Origin: a virus
DNA length: 64,000 nucleotides
Direction: 5' to 3' (one strand)
Virus record (IMG/VR): IMGVR_UViG_3300011113_000492
Location: 1-64,000 of that record
The notes beneath the pieces were generated by a model. It had not been told where the DNA came from, ran no database searches, and was given only the letters and a program-made list of their open reading frames with translations. Positions 8,897 through 46,423 of this stretch are shown here, one piece after another. The position numbers and the translations under genes were made by a program. How positions within the stretch are numbered: position 1 is the stretch's first letter; every line of letters begins with the position of its first letter.

Positions 8897-9499
8897 ATGA
8901 AACACAAGTATGGTCTGACTAAGTTTTGTCTGCATTGCAATAATAAATTTATTACAAAGCCTAGATATTTAGATTTTTGTTCCACTGCCTGTAAAAATCC
9001 TATTAATCGTCCTGGCCACATAGCATGGAATAAAGGGGTTAAATTATCAGACGAACAAAAATCTAAACTCAATATAGAAGGGTTGAAAAAAGGACACGGG
9101 TGGAATAGAGGCGTTCCAAATGAAGTTGCAAGAAAAAGATTCTTAGAAAATAACCCAAATAAAGAAGGCAAACTTAATAACTTAAGACCAAAAAAAGAAT
9201 GTAACGATAAATTTCTTATATACAAAAAAGAAGTAAGAAAAGCAACATATCGCACTCTTAAAGAAATGAAAACCGCTGGATATTTTCCAAAATTTGGAAA
9301 AAGAAAAATAGATTTGCAAGTAGATCATATTATACCATATAAACAAGGTTTTGATTTAGGCATACCGGCGTCTTTACTTGGCGGCAAAAATAATATACAA
9401 TTCTTAAAGGGTGAAGACAATAGAGCAAAATGGGATCACTACCAACCTATGTCGGTAGTAAGAGCGGTTATAGGAGCAATAAATGGCATACAGCGATAA
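8897..9499 (+). CDS. Free-standing HNH homing endonuclease (N-terminal Zn finger, C-terminal HNH) overlapping the iscU start
   Basis: CLHC...CSTAC zinc motif, IAWNKG NUMOD3-like motif and QVDHIIP...NIQFLKGEDNRAK HNH motif. ATAAATA lies 5 nt before the ATG. Confidence 0.85.
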   Translation: MKHKYGLTKFCLHCNNKFITKPRYLDFCSTACKNPINRPGHIAWNKGVKLSDEQKSKLNIEGLKKGHGWNRGVPNEVARKRFLENNPNKEGKLNNLRPKKECNDKFLIYKKEVRKATYRTLKEMKTAGYFPKFGKRKIDLQVDHIIPYKQGFDLGIPASLLGGKNNIQFLKGEDNRAKWDHYQPMSVVRAVIGAINGIQR

Positions 9500-9872
9500 A
9501 GTAATAAACCATTACGAGAATCCTCGTAATGTTGGATCATTTGATAAAGGAGACGCACACGTTGGAACCGGCATGGTCGGTGCCCCAGCGTGTGGTTAGA
9601 TAGGCGATGTAATGAAACTTCAGATCAAAGTAGAAGATGGTATTATCATAGATGCGAGATTTAAAACGTATGGCTGCGGGTCGGCGATTGCAAGCAGTTC
9701 TCTTGTCACAGAATGGGTCAAAGGTAAAACACTTGACCATGCAGCAAGCATTAAGAATACAGAGATTGCAACAGAACTTGCCCTCCCTCCAGTCAAAATA
9801 CATTGTAGCATACTGGCCGAGGATGCAATTAAGGCAGCAGTAAATGATTACCGTAACCGACACAGCAAGTAA
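9483..9872 (+). CDS. iscU: Fe-S scaffold IscU interrupted by an in-frame 9-nt insert containing TAG (candidate ribosomal bypass, otherwise split gene or pseudogene)
   Basis: ATG 9483 reads MAYSDKVINHYENPRNVGSFDKGDAHVGTGMVGAPACG-[TAG ATA GGC]-DVMKLQIKV...FKTYGCGSAIAS...LPPVKIHCSILAEDAIKAA, all in one frame. The ORF track found only the part from 9612. Confidence 0.9.
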
Positions 9873-10164
9873 AAAAATACAACAACAACTTTCGAAACGC
9901 GGGAAGGGTGTCGGACTGCGAGTAGCAGTCAAAACAACCGGTTGCAGCGGCCTTGCATATGTGTTAGAATATGTAGACGAACCCAACCCCGAAGATCAAT
10001 GCGTTGATTGCAGTGGGTGTAAAGTTTTTGTCGATCCTAAAAGTTATGCTTATCTGACTGGACTAGAAATAGATTATGTAAGAAACGGGTTAAATGAAGG
10101 ATTCGAATTTAATAACCCAAATGAACGTGACCGTTGTGGTTGCGGAACTAGTTTTAGGATTTAA
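9844..10164 (+). CDS. iscA: Fe-S carrier IscA
   Basis: TGCSGLAY and CGCGTSF motifs. Confidence 0.95.
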   Translation: MITVTDTASKKIQQQLSKRGKGVGLRVAVKTTGCSGLAYVLEYVDEPNPEDQCVDCSGCKVFVDPKSYAYLTGLEIDYVRNGLNEGFEFNNPNERDRCGCGTSFRI

Positions 10165-10848
10165 ATGTTAATCAATAAATTTAATTACACAACCATTAAT
10201 AGAGAAACAGTTGATGGGAAAAGACACTATTGTTTGCCGGACGGAACCAAAGTACCCAGTGTTACTACTATTTTAGATCGCACCAAGCCCGAAGAAAAGC
10301 GTCAAGCCTTGGCTAATTGGAAAAAGCGTGTGGGCGAAGCACAAGCACAACAAATTACCACAGAAGCTGCTGGTCGTGGAACACGTATGCATAAATGGTT
10401 AGAAACATATGTCAAAGATGGTAGCTTGGGCATCCCAGGTACTAATCCTTACAGTCAACAAAGTCACTCAATGGCCAATGTTATTATTTTCGAAGGATTA
10501 GGCAAAAATGTCAGTGAATATTGGGGAGTAGAAGTTCCTGTTTACTATAGCGGACTGTATGCCGGCACCACAGATTGTATTGGCGTTTGGAAGGGCAAAC
10601 CAGCTATTTTAGACTTCAAACAGACTAATAAACCCAAGAAAAGAGAGTGGATCGACGACTATTTTATCCAGTTGGCGGCCTATGCACTGGCTCACAATAA
10701 TACACACGGAACAGATATTAAACAGGGTGTAATTTTGATGTGTAGTGCTGAAAATCAATATCAAGAATTTGAAATTACTGAACAAGAATTTGAACATTGG
10801 TCCAATGAGTGGCTTAAACGAGTAGAGCTCTATTACCTATCTAACTAA
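10165..10848 (+). CDS. PD-(D/E)XK exonuclease (MGME1/Cas4-like phage family)
   Basis: PSVTTIL, GTRMH, AGTTDC, DFKQ and QLAAY motifs. Confidence 0.85.
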   Translation: MLINKFNYTTINRETVDGKRHYCLPDGTKVPSVTTILDRTKPEEKRQALANWKKRVGEAQAQQITTEAAGRGTRMHKWLETYVKDGSLGIPGTNPYSQQSHSMANVIIFEGLGKNVSEYWGVEVPVYYSGLYAGTTDCIGVWKGKPAILDFKQTNKPKKREWIDDYFIQLAAYALAHNNTHGTDIKQGVILMCSAENQYQEFEITEQEFEHWSNEWLKRVELYYLSN

Positions 10849-11894: not shown

Positions 11895-14195
11895 ATGACA
11901 CAAATTCAAGTTATAAAAAGAGACGGACACAAAGAACCTCTAGATTTAGAAAAATTACATAAAGTTGTATTTTGGGCCACTAAAGATATCACAGGTGTAA
12001 GCGCCAGTGAGTTAGAAATCAAAAGTCGCATACAATTTTACAATGGAATCAAAACCACAGATATTCAAGAAACTATGATTAAGAGTGCCGCTGACCTTAT
12101 CAGCGAAGACGCTCCTAATTATCAATATGTAGCAGGTAGGTTAATTAACTATCATTTACGCAAACAAGTTTATGGGAATTACCAACCTTGTAGTGTATTA
12201 GAGCTAGTTAAAAAAAATGTTGCCCGCGGATTCTATGATCAAGGATTGCTGGAAGCTTTTAGTGAAGAAGAATGGAACGAAATTAATCAATTCGTAGTTC
12301 ACGAAAGGGATGAACATTTTACCTATGTAGCCATGGAACAATGGCGTGGAAAATATTTGGTACAAAATCGCGTCACTGGAGAAATCTACGAAACGCCACA
12401 AATGGCCTACATTTTAATTGCAGCAACTTTATTTCAAAAATATCCTAAGGAAACAAGACTACAATGGGTAAAGGATTATTATAATGCAGTATCTAATCAT
12501 GATATTAGTTTGCCTACCCCCATTATGGCTGGTGTACGTACACCACAAAAACAATTTAGTTCGTGCGTTCTTATTGAGACTGATGATAGCTTGGACAGTA
12601 TTAATGCTACTGCTAGCAGTATCGTACGATACGTCAGCCAAAAAGCCGGAATTGGTATTGGAGCAGGACGAATTAGGGCTTTGGGTTCGCCTATTAGGAG
12701 TGGAGACGCCTATCACACGGGTGTAATCCCCTTTTACAAACACTTTCAAAGTGCAACTCGCAGTTGCAGTCAAGGCGGGGTACGCAATGGTGCAGCCACG
12801 TTATACTACCCCATATGGCATTTAGAAGTCGATGACTTGTTAGTGCTTAAAAATAATAAAGGTACTGAAGACAATCGTGTTCGTCATATGGACTATGGTG
12901 TGCAGTTTAACAAACTAATGTACGAACGATTGATCACCGGCGGCGACATTACTTGTTTTAGTCCACATGATGTTCCCGAGATGTACGAAGCATTCTTTAA
13001 TGATCAGGATAAGTTTAAAGAGTTATATGAACGTGCAGAACGCAATACCAAGCTACGAAAGAAAACTTATAAAGCATTAGACTTATTTGGCAGGTTTGTG
13101 CAAGAACGAAAGGACACTGGTAGAGTTTACTTAATGAATGTGGACCATGCTAATACTCATAGTCCATTTAAAGAAAAAATTGCTCCTATTAAAATGAGTA
13201 ATCTATGTACTGAAATTGACTTGCCCACAGTGCCACTTAAAGATTTAAATGACCCTGACGGAAGAATTGCACTATGTACTCTAAGTGCAACTAACTGGGG
13301 AAATGTTAAGAGTCCAAAAGACTTTGAACGTATGTGTACATTAGCGGTCCGAGGATTGGATGCACTATTAAGTTATCAACACTATCCAGTGTTAGCTGCA
13401 AAGTTAGCCACAGAAGAATTTAGGCCATTGGGTATTGGTATTATTAATTTTGCATATTTCTTGGCCAAACATGATGTCAGTTACAGTGATCCACGTGCAT
13501 TGGCTCTTGTTGATGAATATGCAGAAGCATGGAGTTACTATCTAATTAAAGCCAGTGTAGAGCTTGCAAAAGAGCAAGGGGCTTGTGGTCGTTGGAAAGA
13601 TTTAAAATCAGCTGATGGTATTTTGCCAATTGACACACGTAAGTCAGAAGTTGATGAGTTGGTTCCGCATCAAGAGCGTATGGATTGGCAAAGTCTCAGA
13701 GAAGATGCCGCACGTTACGGACAAAGAAATGCCACCTTAATGGCGTTAATGCCTGCGGAAACTTCTGCACAGATCAGTAACAGTACCAATGGCATCGAGC
13801 CTCCACGCAGCTATGTCAGTGTTAAACAAAGCAAGCATGGTGTTTTGAAACAGGTTGTACCTGAATATCGAAAACTAAAAAACAAATACGAACTACTATG
13901 GGATCAAAAATCTCCCGAAGGTTATTTGAAAATTTGTGCAGTGCTTCAAAAATATATCGATCAAGGTATCAGTGTTAATACCAGTTACAATCCCCACCAT
14001 TACGAAGATGAAAAAATTCCAATGAGTGAAATGATTGGTCACCTGCTTATGTGTTATAAGTATGGTACTAAGCAACTATATTATTTCAACACCATGGATG
14101 GCCAAGGTGAAATCGATGTTGAGAAACTTTCAGCTAAACAAGAAGAATCTGTAACAGCTAGTGACCAAGAAGACTGCGATAGTTGTGTAATTTAA
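11895..14195 (+). CDS. nrdA: Class Ia ribonucleotide reductase alpha subunit with ATP cone
   Basis: VIKRDG ATP cone, FSSCVL, SNLCTEI, LMPAETS and C-terminal CDSCVI. Intact, no intein. Confidence 0.98.
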   Translation: MTQIQVIKRDGHKEPLDLEKLHKVVFWATKDITGVSASELEIKSRIQFYNGIKTTDIQETMIKSAADLISEDAPNYQYVAGRLINYHLRKQVYGNYQPCSVLELVKKNVARGFYDQGLLEAFSEEEWNEINQFVVHERDEHFTYVAMEQWRGKYLVQNRVTGEIYETPQMAYILIAATLFQKYPKETRLQWVKDYYNAVSNHDISLPTPIMAGVRTPQKQFSSCVLIETDDSLDSINATASSIVRYVSQKAGIGIGAGRIRALGSPIRSGDAYHTGVIPFYKHFQSATRSCSQGGVRNGAATLYYPIWHLEVDDLLVLKNNKGTEDNRVRHMDYGVQFNKLMYERLITGGDITCFSPHDVPEMYEAFFNDQDKFKELYERAERNTKLRKKTYKALDLFGRFVQERKDTGRVYLMNVDHANTHSPFKEKIAPIKMSNLCTEIDLPTVPLKDLNDPDGRIALCTLSATNWGNVKSPKDFERMCTLAVRGLDALLSYQHYPVLAAKLATEEFRPLGIGIINFAYFLAKHDVSYSDPRALALVDEYAEAWSYYLIKASVELAKEQGACGRWKDLKSADGILPIDTRKSEVDELVPHQERMDWQSLREDAARYGQRNATLMALMPAETSAQISNSTNGIEPPRSYVSVKQSKHGVLKQVVPEYRKLKNKYELLWDQKSPEGYLKICAVLQKYIDQGISVNTSYNPHHYEDEKIPMSEMIGHLLMCYKYGTKQLYYFNTMDGQGEIDVEKLSAKQEESVTASDQEDCDSCVI

Positions 14196-27937: not shown

Positions 27938-28639
27938 TTATCTGGGTCCAAACCCGGGAGTCCACCCTTGTTGACAAAGCAAAATAAATTCGCTCTTTGA
28001 AATATATTTTCTTTGAATTGGATTTAACAAGTGTACCCATTTCTTACCTAAATTTGCATCTTTGATTTTCTGTGCCTTTTCTGCACTGCACGGTGGTCTT
28101 ATATTCCAAGTTGGATCTGCTGCTTTTTGTTTTCTGGTGGCAGACATTTTAGCTTTTTCTTCTGCGGTGCGCTCTATCCCTTTATTCCAGGAAGTTTGTC
28201 CTTTGCGTGATGCGGATATTTTTGCCCTCCATTCAGGAGTAAAGTCGGCTGAAGTTCTTCCTGTTTTATTTCCAAAATTTGGATTCAAAGGTCCTACTAG
28301 CGTTTTTAAATACTCACATCGCTGTTTCTTAATAATTTGATATGTAGCTGCAGAAACTTTATAACGAGATTGATCAGGTTTGGCTTGCACCGTCATCCTC
28401 CACGCAGCATAAACCATTTTTTTTCTATTTGTACCGTCAGTCATTTTGGGTAGGAGTAAATGACAAATGAAATGTTCTTTTGCGGTTAATCGAACCAAAT
28501 TGATTTTGGAATTATCGCCCCCTAGACTTTTAGGAATAATATGATGCTTTTCGGTATATTCGTTTTTATCATTTATTCTTGACTGTGCTCTGTTAATTAT
28601 GCTATAATAGCACTTAAAATATTTGTTCTTAATAAACAT
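27938..28639 (-). CDS. Free-standing HNH homing endonuclease with NUMOD3 repeats
   Basis: KHHIIPKSLGGDNSKINLVRLTAKEHFICH, closely similar to the HNH at 182. Inserted antisense. Confidence 0.9.
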   Translation of the reverse strand: MFIKNKYFKCYYSIINRAQSRINDKNEYTEKHHIIPKSLGGDNSKINLVRLTAKEHFICHLLLPKMTDGTNRKKMVYAAWRMTVQAKPDQSRYKVSAATYQIIKKQRCEYLKTLVGPLNPNFGNKTGRTSADFTPEWRAKISASRKGQTSWNKGIERTAEEKAKMSATRKQKAADPTWNIRPPCSAEKAQKIKDANLGKKWVHLLNPIQRKYISKSEFILLCQQGWTPGFGPR

Positions 28640-36881: not shown

Positions 36882-38936
36882 ATGAATCATAAACTTAAAA
36901 AACTATTGTTAAGTCCCTGGACTGCGCTGTTAACATTAGCACTTATTTTAAGTATAAGAATTGCCGATCCCGCTTTTATAGAAAGTGTGAGATTAAGATA
37001 CTTTGACACTCTTATCACACAAAAAACTTCTACGGACAACAATATATACACAGTCAATATAGATGAATCTAGTCTAGAAAAGTACGGCCAATGGCCATTA
37101 CCGAGGACAGAATATGCGAAAATTATTCAAGACCTTTATGCTCGCAATGCTGGCCTTGTTGTTCTCAATGTTCTTATGGCTGAGCCTGATCGTACTGGTG
37201 GAGATGGCGATCTTAGTGCCATACTTAAAAAGTATCCTGTAGTATTAGGTTCTGTGCCTAGTAACAAAACAAAAAATGAGCCGCGAGTTCCTGGATCAGC
37301 GGTCCTAGGCCCAGAATGGATGGACCAAATCGTTACATATCCAGGACTGATTGCCAACGTTCCTAAATTAGAAAATAATGCCGCAGGGGTCGGTATAGTG
37401 AACACACTACCAGAAGTAGACGGTGTTAATCGCCGTGTTCCTTTAATTGTAACTGTTGATGGAAAACTATATCCCGGACTGGCATTGGAAACATTGCGTG
37501 TGGCTACAGGCAATGACACATTTCAAGTTAAGTTATTCGAAGGAGGCGTTGAGAAAATGCGATTGCCTGGAGAAGTTGGAGTCATCAACACAGACAATCT
37601 TGGTCGCATATGGATTGATTGGAGCCAACAGAATAAATCGGTTAGCTTAACAAACTTACCAAAAGATTTTAATCGTGCTATTGTTGTAGTAGGACCCACT
37701 GCCGCTGGTATTGCTAATCCGATTCCAACTAGTAAAGGTGCAATATTTCCGCATGATGTACAAGCTGGCGTAATTGCTACAATAGCTAACGGTGTTGTTA
37801 TTCAGCGTCCGGACTATGCGGATGGCTTAGAAATTATTGCTATTGCAGTTTCGGGATTGTTATTACTGTTTTTAACAAGGTGGACTTATGTTGGACTTGC
37901 GTCGGTTATTGTATTGGTCGCTGGCGGTATTGCTGGCAGTTACTATGCTTACAGCAACTTTTTATTCTTATTTGACAGTACTGCCTTTGCAGTTAGCACA
38001 GTCCTGGTCGCTTTGCATGCCTACGGTGTCAAGTTTGTCTCAGAGTTCTTACAAAAGCAGGCCATAAAGAAACAATTTGCTGGCTACTGCTCAAAAGAAG
38101 TAGTGGAGATGTTACAAAAAGATCCGGACTTAATCAAGCGTGGTGTGCGTAAAGACGTATCGGTCATGTTCAGTGACCTACGTGGCTTTACACCTATCGG
38201 CGAACACTACGGAGATGATGTTGCTGGACTGGGCAAATACATGAATGGTTACATGGACAGCATCAGCAAGCCTATCATGGATAACAAAGGCATGGTCATC
38301 AAATATGTAGGTGATGCAAGTATGCACATACATGGTGCTCCTATTGAAGATCCCGACCACGCTCGCACTATCGTTAAGGTAGGATTAGAAATGTTAGATG
38401 CTGTTGACGAGTATACCAAGCTGATGGAAGCACAGGGCTTACCACCAGCCGCCATGGGCTGGGGTTGTAACACAGGTATTGGCTTTATTGGCGAGATGGG
38501 CAGCACTGATAGACACAGCTATGACATTTTGGGTGACATGGTTTCAACTGCGGCACGACTAGAAGCACGTTGTAAGGCCTATGGTGTGTTGGCTATCATT
38601 GGTGCTGAAACATATAATAGAACTAAAGACGACTTCTTCTATTTGTTGTTGGACAACTTACAACCTAAGGGAAAGACCGTGGCAGACTTAATCTATACAG
38701 TGATACGACCACGTGGTGAAGATTACAGTAAAGATCGAGAACAACACGAAGCAATGCATGCCTTGTATAAGGCTAAGAAATTTGACGAAGCTGCCGCTAT
38801 GTGTAAGAAGATGAAAGGTACCTTCGGTGGACAAATGGACAAGTACTACAAGATATGGATTGAACGCTGCGAATTTATGAAGCAACAGGATTTAGGTCCA
38901 ACTTGGAACGGCGAATTTATAGCGCACGAAAAATAA
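36882..38936 (+). CDS. CHASE2-domain class III adenylate cyclase
   Basis: N-terminal TM, CHASE2 motifs (VNIDESSL..YGQWP.PR; DGVNRRVPL), three TMs, then SVMFSDLRGFT, IKYVGD and YDILGDMVSTAARLE. Confidence 0.93.
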   Translation: MNHKLKKLLLSPWTALLTLALILSIRIADPAFIESVRLRYFDTLITQKTSTDNNIYTVNIDESSLEKYGQWPLPRTEYAKIIQDLYARNAGLVVLNVLMAEPDRTGGDGDLSAILKKYPVVLGSVPSNKTKNEPRVPGSAVLGPEWMDQIVTYPGLIANVPKLENNAAGVGIVNTLPEVDGVNRRVPLIVTVDGKLYPGLALETLRVATGNDTFQVKLFEGGVEKMRLPGEVGVINTDNLGRIWIDWSQQNKSVSLTNLPKDFNRAIVVVGPTAAGIANPIPTSKGAIFPHDVQAGVIATIANGVVIQRPDYADGLEIIAIAVSGLLLLFLTRWTYVGLASVIVLVAGGIAGSYYAYSNFLFLFDSTAFAVSTVLVALHAYGVKFVSEFLQKQAIKKQFAGYCSKEVVEMLQKDPDLIKRGVRKDVSVMFSDLRGFTPIGEHYGDDVAGLGKYMNGYMDSISKPIMDNKGMVIKYVGDASMHIHGAPIEDPDHARTIVKVGLEMLDAVDEYTKLMEAQGLPPAAMGWGCNTGIGFIGEMGSTDRHSYDILGDMVSTAARLEARCKAYGVLAIIGAETYNRTKDDFFYLLLDNLQPKGKTVADLIYTVIRPRGEDYSKDREQHEAMHALYKAKKFDEAAAMCKKMKGTFGGQMDKYYKIWIERCEFMKQQDLGPTWNGEFIAHEK

Positions 38937-45124: not shown

Positions 45125-46423
45125 ATGTTTGACAAAACTTTTTGCTCTAGTCCCTGGTTCCACCTAAAATTAAAATACGACGGCACTTTTGCAGAATGTA
45201 GATGGGGGGATAAAAAATCCAATCATAATTTTACCACAAGTATTGTGCAATTTTACAATAGCAAGCAAATGTCCCATATGAGAACGCAGCTATTAAATGG
45301 AGAGAAACCCGATATTTGTGAAACTTGTTATTATGAGGAAACATTTGGAAAATTAAATGGCAGAATTCGTCAATTGAATAAGAGCGGAATTGATAAAAAT
45401 AATTTTGCATTAACAACAAGAAGTAGTCCGCATTACAGATTATTTGAATACAGTCAAAATAACAATGGGCAAGCAAATTATGAACCAGTCGATTTACAAA
45501 TAGATTTGGGCAACGTTTGTAATAGTGCATGTATTATGTGCGACCCATTTTCAAGTAGCAGATTGACATCGGATTACAATAAACTTAGTAAAACAAACCC
45601 GTTATTTCCTGTACCAACTCCTTATATATCTTGGACTCAGAATCCAACTCGACTAGACCAGTTTGTTAATGAACTTATTGAAATAAAGAATTTGAAATAC
45701 ATTCACTTCCTGGGAGGGGAGACACTATATGATCCTGCATTTTATACAATTTGTGAAAAACTAATAGACGCTGGTATTAGTAAAAATATCACTATTGGCA
45801 CAACAACCAATGGCACAATATATGATGATAGAGTGGTGAGATTAATAAATGAATTCGGCGGGTTTCATTTAGGTATTAGCATAGAAGCAGTTACTCCTAT
45901 CAATGATTATATCAGATATCCTGGCAAGTTAATTGATATTATTCCTAATATAGATAAGTTTTTAGAATTAAGAAAAACAACTAATCTTTTTGTCAGCCTA
46001 CGAATAACTCCTAATATTTTTACAATATACGATATAGATTTATTGATTAGATACATGCTTGAAAATCAAGTTATAGCAGAGAGTTGTAATATATTACAAA
46101 AACCAGCACAGCTCAGAATGGAATTATTGCCAGATGATATAAGACAGGAAATCGTTGCTAAGTTAAAAAAAGTAATAGAAGAGTTTCAATTAGAAAAATA
46201 TAACATAGTAAATGTACGGGTCACTGAATCAATTAAAAAAGTAATATCCGACATTGCTTATGAATATTTGAATTTTTTAGAAACATATTCCTCTCTGACA
46301 AATGAAGAAGAATTAAGACATAAACTAGTTGACTTTATCAAAGGATTTGAATCTCTGAGAGAAAATAGTATTTTAGATTATGCACCACGATATGAAAAAT
46401 TTCTCCGACATTACGGCTATTGA
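45125..46423 (+). CDS. Radical SAM protein with N-terminal twitch/SPASM-like cysteines
   Basis: CNSACIMC, GGETL and N-terminal FCSSPW...C...CETC. Confidence 0.87.
   Translation: MFDKTFCSSPWFHLKLKYDGTFAECRWGDKKSNHNFTTSIVQFYNSKQMSHMRTQLLNGEKPDICETCYYEETFGKLNGRIRQLNKSGIDKNNFALTTRSSPHYRLFEYSQNNNGQANYEPVDLQIDLGNVCNSACIMCDPFSSSRLTSDYNKLSKTNPLFPVPTPYISWTQNPTRLDQFVNELIEIKNLKYIHFLGGETLYDPAFYTICEKLIDAGISKNITIGTTTNGTIYDDRVVRLINEFGGFHLGISIEAVTPINDYIRYPGKLIDIIPNIDKFLELRKTTNLFVSLRITPNIFTIYDIDLLIRYMLENQVIAESCNILQKPAQLRMELLPDDIRQEIVAKLKKVIEEFQLEKYNIVNVRVTESIKKVISDIAYEYLNFLETYSSLTNEEELRHKLVDFIKGFESLRENSILDYAPRYEKFLRHYGY

Follow-up and report, generated by a model that had tools for sequence, protein, structure and literature searches.

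A candidate Gly-to-Gly stop-hop insert in iscU of freshwater jumbo phages, linked to a homing-endonuclease-like gene

Efficient programmed bypassing is known mainly from gene 60 of phage T4 and its homologues, from the yeast mitochondrial byp elements, and from one candidate 10-nt case, in phage Hau3. Here we analyse the first 64 kb (hereafter the window) of a 123-kb viral contig in IMG/VR (IMGVR_UViG_3300011113_000492), in which the iscU gene is interrupted after codon 38 by a 9-nt, stop-containing insert and is preceded by a free-standing homing-endonuclease-like gene. The arrangement is probably that of a homing-endonuclease cassette which carries a programmed Gly-to-Gly stop-hop. In the literature, no published description of an iscU stop-hop cassette was found.

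The iscU locus resembles the T4 gene 60/MobA system in that a stop (or rare AGG) codon comes directly after a Gly take-off codon, and in that the Gly landing codon lies beside an invariant Asp (10.1101/2022.08.31.505936). Both have a Shine-Dalgarno (SD)-like element, which aids landing in gene 60 and may do so here; in both, the insert lies at a strongly conserved site close to a free-standing endonuclease gene, is retained after loss of the endonuclease, and belongs to an element that inserts repeatedly into related phages. The two differ in the length of the gap, 50 nt in gene 60 and 4 to 10 nt in the iscU family, and in the position of RNA structure. Gene 60 has a take-off stem-loop inside the gap, whereas the iscU gap has none; instead, a hairpin that ends at the take-off codon is conserved on the 5′ side in the iscU family, and a full SD-like motif sits at its 5′ foot, while the 5′ stem-loop is not conserved among the relatives of gene 60 (10.1101/2022.08.31.505936). 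The target in T4 is a topoisomerase gene, and iscU is not split into two open reading frames (ORFs) with added tails. The iscU-linked endonuclease also belongs to a different family from MobA, without significant similarity to known models. The roles proposed below for the hairpin and the SD-like motif recall the mini-SD and the exiting-mRNA pairing of gene 60 (10.1101/2022.08.31.505936; 10.1101/2024.12.09.627546), as well as the 5′ stem-loop and SD suggested for the Hau3 bypass (PMC10732093).

The UUA-triggered bypass in the terminase gene of the Streptomyces phage Hau3 (Antonov et al. 2023, PMC10732093) likewise concerns a short (10-nt) gap in a phage gene, with a 5′ stem-loop and a flanking Shine-Dalgarno sequence proposed as stimulators and a slow codon in the A site. 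In that case, however, a rare sense codon acts as the trigger and a regulatory role is proposed, no homing endonuclease is linked, and the occurrences are few compared with the 88 covarying alleles described here; the Hau3 bypass has mass-spectrometry support in E. coli (PMC10732093), whereas the iscU hop is a prediction from sequence. Synthetic E. coli 'stop-hops' (Weiss et al. 1987, via Atkins et al. 2016, PMC5009743) have exactly the form of three of our alleles (L263, L289 and L344), but they were low-efficiency, synthetic constructs, while the iscU case is natural and conserved and appears to have dedicated stimulatory elements. According to the 2016 recoding review, natural in-frame stop-hops were not known, and shorter counterparts of the known bypasses had long been expected (PMC5009743). 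The byp elements of Magnusiomyces capitatus mitochondria are also numerous, short, mobile bypassed inserts in which imperfect codon matching is possible (PMC5009743; 10.1101/2022.08.31.505936). Unlike the iscU inserts, they are 27 to 55 nt long and mitochondrial, make no use of SD pairing, have no endonuclease link, and occupy many sites rather than one.

The insert, its hairpin and its Shine-Dalgarno-like motif

Positions 9591–9614 of the window read TGT GGT TAG ATA GGC GAT GTA ATG, and the iscU frame from ATG 9483 to TAA 9870–9872 is open apart from the single TAG. The first part of iscU (9483–9596, + strand) comprises codons 1–38 (M...GAPACG) and ends with GGT 9594–9596, the putative take-off codon. 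The insert (9597–9605, + strand) consists of TAG 9597–9599, which would be the A-site codon, the spacer ATA 9600–9602, and GGC 9603–9605, the putative landing codon. The second part (9606–9872, + strand) runs from Asp39 (GAT 9606) to the TAA and carries Cys63, the LPPVK motif and His-Cys106. GGU and GGC are both decoded by tRNA-Gly(GCC). Deletion of the 9 nt regains the canonical GAPACGDVMKLQ. Pfam NifU_N matched residues 2–38 of the first ORF at profile positions 1–35 and the 86-aa second ORF at profile positions 38–124. With the stop read through, the window iscU scored 169.9 bits, above the profile cut-off, and it keeps all three cluster-ligand Cys residues, Asp39 and LPPVK. The original prediction, made from the window sequence, that a 9-nt stop-containing interruption separates two otherwise intact halves of IscU, and that its removal restores the protein, was thus borne out.

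Whether the 9 nt are real was checked in independent assemblies. An exact 20-mer across the site is present in four further IMG/VR contigs, and Logan contigs of four independent studies (X2–X5) cross 9597–9605 without an indel, so that an assembly error was rejected. The runs holding this stretch came from river, lake, drinking-water and other freshwater metagenomes, with no RNA run listed among them, and the near-complete relatives are jumbo phages of 338–367 kb. Reassignment of TAG to a sense codon was likewise rejected: among 79 long ORFs in the window, the stops were TAA in 57, TGA in 20 and TAG in 2, and code 11 yields a dense gene map; together these give no sign of recoding. In relatives, the same stop position is also occupied by TGA or TAA. 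Rare as it is among the stops of the window (2/79), TAG is the stop in 28 of the 82 stop-containing inserts of the family described next.

Most of the 80 closest iscU loci have an uninterrupted TGY GGN GAY GTN ATG, and four have differing 7- or 8-nt inserts at the same place. Pattern scans, together with a scan anchored on the upstream ORF, yielded 88 distinct insert alleles and 176 insert-free alleles. The initial pattern scans demanded GAY GTN ATG and were blind to the conservation of codons 39–41; they were replaced by the nuclease-gene-anchored sample, which is unbiased at the junction. Marine 'GAPEC' iscU matches with a 16-nt 'gap' were discarded as false positives of the pattern. The GenBank phage collection gave only three distant iscU matches (~70% identity), all without insert and nuclease gene. 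In the 88 insert alleles, inserts of 4, 6, 7, 8, 9 and 10 nt (1, 3, 43, 21, 18 and 2 alleles, respectively) fall at one shared codon and in all three frames, with 30 distinct take-off-plus-insert strings, that of the window among them.

These strings follow a common grammar: a Gly codon, a stop codon (82/88), 0 to 4 nt, a Gly codon (87/88), and Asp-Val. The codon after the take-off codon is TGA in 39 alleles, TAG in 28, TAA in 15, AGG in one and TGT in five, and in 51 of 82 the stop is followed by C; a C in this position is the weakest termination context in E. coli. The landing GGN directly precedes GAY GTN in 87 of the 88 alleles, and a GGN earlier in the gap occurs only as a GGG overlapping a GGC landing codon, with a GGY take-off codon. 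The first two bases of the codons for take-off and landing are GG in 87 of 88, and in about 57% of the alleles one tRNA can read both codons. The 6-nt class (L263, L289 and L344) reads GGT TAG GGC or GGT TGA GGA. A minority class lacks a stop directly after the take-off codon: L097, L131, L173 and L195 read GGT TGT T GGA, and L292, without a landing Gly, reads GGT TGT TGA C GAT. On the nuclease-gene tree, L097 lies among alleles reading GGT TAG TTA GGT, from which two 1-nt deletions would give its string. L233 / L248 (GGT A GGC) has a 4-nt insert with AGG in the A site and resembles the 'hungry codon' variants of gene 60 and a Ty1-like +1 site.

Beyond what the original prediction had described, two insert-specific elements were found in the first part of iscU: a hairpin ending at the take-off codon and an SD-like motif just 5′ of it. 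The motif, AAAGGAGA at 9546–9553 (+ strand), lies directly 5′ of the hairpin. GGAG, GAGG or AGGA is present at this position in all 50 distinct insert alleles compared, with a mean anti-SD duplex of −9.9 kcal/mol, against 14% of insert-free alleles and a mean of −2.1 kcal/mol. In insert alleles it takes the form TAAGGAGGA or TAAAGGAGA and lies in varying codon registers (AAA GGA GAC or AAG GAG GAC), suggesting that selection acts on the RNA. With the hairpin folded, the distance from the motif to the landing codon is 8 to 11 unpaired nt in 46 of 57 alleles, which matches start-site spacing.

The predicted mRNA hairpin (9556–9594, + strand) has 17 bp, with 9556–9572 pairing with 9576–9581 and 9584–9594 around a loop at 9573–9575, and its last pair includes the first G of the take-off codon. 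A 60-nt segment of the window folds at −26.5 kcal/mol (z = −3.06). For the 48 nt ending at the take-off codon the mean was −24.7 kcal/mol in insert alleles, compared with −13.2 kcal/mol in comparable alleles without the insert and −8.6 kcal/mol in those where the upstream ORF is present. Every one of the 42 distinct insert sequences retains at least 15 of the 17 pairs (range 15 to 17), whereas insert-free alleles keep 10.6 on average. Covariation was seen between third-codon positions, both at pair 12-42 (CG 20, AU 18, UA 3, GC 1) and at pair 15-39 (UA 27, CG 7, GC 3, UG 3, GU 2). Overall, 95% of cells are paired, compared with 30 to 42% when the 3′ partners are slid by 1 to 3 columns. The hairpin also contains invariant U-G pairs, which are possible in the sense RNA only.

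The upstream nuclease gene and the mosaic cassette

The gene upstream of iscU (8897–9499, + strand) encodes a free-standing homing-endonuclease-like protein of 200 aa, and its last 17 nt, stop included, overlap the start of iscU. The protein carries a 4-Cys finger at its N-terminus and an HNH-like D143-H144...N166...N175 motif at its C-terminus; NUMOD3-like repeats are also present. In a family alignment (A1) of 20 members, which are 41–69% identical to the window protein, C11, C14, C28, C32, D143, H144, N166 and N175 are invariant. Pfam gave no match to the window ORF at E ≤ 0.01; sub-threshold matches to HNH were obtained in nine of the 20 members (best E 0.021) and to NUMOD3 in three. A sequence-profile search of PDB with the nuclease family found no match, HNH included, and Foldseek against PDB returned nothing at E ≤ 0.001. 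The top fold matches are HNH nucleases at only Z 3.1–4.3 (the Gme HNH nicking endonuclease at Z 4.3, the GVE2 phage HNH protein at Z 3.4). No relatives of the family were found in 185,579 prokaryote genomes. The claim of the original prediction that an HNH gene ends inside the iscU start stands as to the overlap, while the identification as HNH rests on these sub-threshold Pfam and low-Z fold matches. Elsewhere in the contig, a search for a paralogous cassette gave only a weak NUMOD3 match, at 27995–28222. A 233-aa ORF on the − strand (27938–28639), lying among plus-strand genes, matches NUMOD3 (Pfam 3.2e-06), is weakly similar to the middle of the nuclease family, and is probably a second free-standing homing endonuclease.

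Insert and nuclease gene occur together in 65 alleles; the insert alone was found in 22, the nuclease gene alone in nine, and neither in 157. In the 65 alleles with both, the nuclease gene lies 82 to 107 nt upstream of the junction. The 22 insert alleles without it still hold the insert, the hairpin and the SD-like motif. The uninterrupted canonical motif was seen in none of 74 nuclease-linked alleles, compared with 80 nuclease-free alleles. At least nine alleles have the nuclease gene with neither insert nor hairpin, and all of them are changed in the otherwise invariant VGAPACG|DVMKLQ, to TGSPACG, to GAPSCG with DVL, or to DLM; such motif substitutions may be a second route to immunity. Loci of this kind are L327–L331, L338, L322, L334, L339, L341, L351, L352, L356, L391 and L396.

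On a C-terminal-part tree of iscU, 26 or more changes of insert state are needed, and well-supported branches force at least eight of them; this tree was made without re-alignment, has some very long inner branches, and was used for the state-change count alone. Single loci illustrate the exchange. L086, a close relative, has the insert and the hairpin with the nuclease gene cleanly absent. L037 has neither nuclease gene nor insert; its identity to the window is 91.6% across 2.9 kb downstream and 88% over the C-terminal part, but only 67–70% in the first 115 nt of iscU. In X2 and X3, contigs of other phages match the hairpin region (9560–9595) and then continue as C GAC GTC ATG AAA (loose ends at 9595). 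Insert-free alleles co-occur with the cassette in the same samples and are thus potential homing targets. Judged from these comparisons, the cassette moves among phage backbones and is mosaic relative to them. The genetics of the nuclease gene are those of a homing element. Co-inheritance of the insert with the upstream nuclease, as originally proposed, is thus what the linkage counts, the lack of any intact canonical site beside the gene, and the mosaic cassette indicate.

Hop, re-start and other explanations

The cassette consists of the HNH-like nuclease gene, the first ~115 nt of iscU, re-coded for the SD-like motif and the 17-bp hairpin, and the 9-nt insert between Gly38 and Asp39. With a ribosome at GGU 9594, the P site would be occupied by peptidyl-tRNA-Gly and the A site by UAG, where termination is presumed to be slow. 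The tRNA would un-pair, the mRNA would slip forward by 9 nt, and the tRNA would re-pair on GGC 9603, so that decoding restarts at Asp39 and a normal IscU is made. The upstream hairpin may drive the forward slip by re-zipping as it leaves the ribosome, and the motif at the hairpin's foot, by pairing with the anti-SD, may fix the landing register. As for the DNA, the insert would break the conserved site presumed to be cut by the neighbouring nuclease and make its carrier immune; this protective role is inferred by analogy with MobA and gene 60.

As the inserts fall in all three frames at one codon, a hop and a re-start are the only frame-indifferent options. The original prediction had named as its alternative a split IscU, in which a 38-aa N-terminal peptide and an 86-aa C-terminal protein are made by coupled re-initiation at ATG 9612, the pieces then assembling or the C-terminal protein working alone. 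That ATG lies 13 nt past the stop with AGG/GGCGAT upstream, many relatives have GGAG or AGGTGA 5 to 7 nt before ATG41, and ATG41 is kept in 78 of the 88 insert alleles; it is, however, just as conserved in alleles without the insert, and the strong SD-like motif lies at a distance that suits the landing codon rather than ATG41. Codon 41 is Leu (CTT or TTA) in ten insert alleles, and in seven of the ten the C-terminal frame offers no ATG, GTG or TTG until codon 71, which lies past Cys63; this removes re-start at codon 41 as a general explanation. The upstream ORF, the N-terminal part (38–39 codons) and the C-terminal part (86–95 codons) are all intact in those alleles. The landing Gly, Asp39 and Val40 would be untranslated in a split gene, yet they are conserved with synonymous variation: Asp39 and Val40 are invariant in 88 of 88 alleles while the third bases vary (GAT/GAC; GTA/C/G/T), and in the nuclease-gene-anchored sample every insert allele has GAY GTN after the landing codon with the third position free. 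A split would also lose Asp39 and cut Cys37 off from the remaining protein. A true split gene is thus improbable, and re-start fails across the family even though it is formally possible in the window. The Gly-flanked inserts of 4 to 10 nt, the retained Asp-Val, the Leu41 alleles and the intactness of both halves under purifying selection support the hop over a plain split gene across the family, as was originally favoured.

Translation of the insert itself, by UAG readthrough in the window (G-X-I-G) and by +1, −1 or +2 frameshifts in the relatives with 7-, 8-, 10- or 4-nt inserts, would place one to three extra residues before Asp39. The window insert is in frame, one relative has GGT AGG C resembling a Ty1-type +1 site, and a second Gly beside the Asp could serve the protein. 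This reading would nevertheless need a separate recoding mechanism for each insert length, with slippery heptamers absent and poor re-pairing of the Gly-tRNA at −1 or +1 (CGG, GUU). All three stop codons are used, and the added residues would lie inside the cluster-binding Cys37/Asp39 loop. Neither a suppressor tRNA nor a special tRNA-Gly, nor any other tRNA gene, was found in the window or the 123-kb contig, a weak negative given that the contig is about 35% complete. No codon-like constraint is seen in the spacer, whose length varies among close relatives: on the nuclease-gene tree the insert switches frame class at least 12 times, often between close relatives, and one starred clade holds 7-, 9- and 8-nt inserts. 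We regard translation of the insert as hardly probable.

Auxiliary as iscU is, and mildly harmful as homing elements can be, the gene might instead be null or crippled and tolerated as a cost of the selfish element, with no programmed recoding. Decay of iscU was not seen in the relatives, where both halves are maintained: the N-terminal ORF of 37–39 codons is intact in 85 of 87 insert alleles and the C-terminal part of 86–95 codons in nearly all, and both halves are under purifying selection (for the N-terminal part of the insert alleles, pN/pS 0.23 at pS 0.78, codons 2–22) across saturated synonymous divergence. The interrupted iscU is the sole NifU_N gene in four relatives that are 97–100% complete (338–367 kb), so that a spare intact copy making the broken one dispensable was rejected for these genomes. 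Persistence of insert, hairpin and SD-like motif in the 22 alleles that lost the nuclease gene also speaks against a null allele, which would leave the covarying hairpin and the motif unexplained; this reading appears very improbable. The conserved hairpin abutting the insert might also suggest that the 9 nt are removed or masked in the RNA before normal translation, by cleavage and ligation or by hairpin-guided editing. We know of no system that removes 4 to 10 nt from bacterial or phage mRNA. The constant stop and flanking Gly codons would then have no role, and the SD-like motif points to the ribosome; such processing seems far-fetched.

Several observations weigh against the Gly-to-Gly hop. 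Take-off and landing codons always match in the T4 gene 60 family (10.1101/2022.08.31.505936), whereas in the iscU family they often mismatch at the wobble base, about 43% of the 88 alleles having GGY against GGR in either order. The prediction of matched Gly codons around the stop thus holds in the window (GGU/GGC) but does not extend to the family as a whole. The mismatched pairs may mean that two strong G-C pairs in the P site suffice, or that the SD-like motif and hairpin set the register. Five alleles have the sense codon TGT after the take-off codon, and L292 lacks a landing Gly. The window alone, with its in-frame insert and ATG 9612, formally allows readthrough or re-start, and the case for a hop there draws on homology with relatives that share the nuclease gene, the hairpin, the motif and the site. 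The 5′ region is co-inherited, and part of the motif conservation could reflect descent, although a pS of ~0.5–0.8 argues against descent as its cause. The HNH label of the 200-aa protein is weakly supported.

Taken together, the results fit a single polypeptide made by a Gly-to-Gly hop, rather than a pseudogene, a C-terminal-only protein or length-specific frameshifts. It is moderately likely that the alleles form a natural, widespread family of 4- to 10-nt hops with a mechanism of its own, in which the SD-like motif and the hairpin act as a clamp whose re-folding pulls the mRNA and registers the landing Gly, and which evolved as the immunity half of a homing cassette in freshwater jumbo phages. 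If the hop is true, the 6-nt iscU members are natural versions of the synthetic stop-hops. With 30 natural variants in three frames, and with the SD-like motif, hairpin, stop and Gly codons all within ~60 nt, the family would be an unusually tractable system, opening the questions of how the ribosome releases and re-finds a codon, how much mismatch between take-off and landing is tolerated, and whether re-folding of the exiting mRNA drives forward movement. It would also be a second, independent pairing of a homing endonuclease with a bypass insert, which suggests a general route of self-protection for selfish elements in conserved coding sites. Gene callers will label such iscU genes as broken or split.

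Neighbouring genes

The gene following iscU (9844–10164, + strand) encodes an iscA-like A-type Fe-S carrier (Pfam Fe-S_biosyn, 8.4e-21) and overlaps the iscU end. It adjoins iscU in 198 loci and is part of the phage backbone, outside the cassette. Directly after it lies a PD-(D/E)XK exonuclease gene (phrog_298; 10165–10848). This gene, a class I ribonucleotide reductase with an ATP-cone (11895–14195) and a radical SAM protein (45125–46423) are ordinary auxiliary genes of jumbo phages. A signalling gene unusual for a phage is found at 36882–38936 (+ strand), encoding a 684-aa protein with a CHASE2 sensor and adenylate/guanylate cyclase domains.

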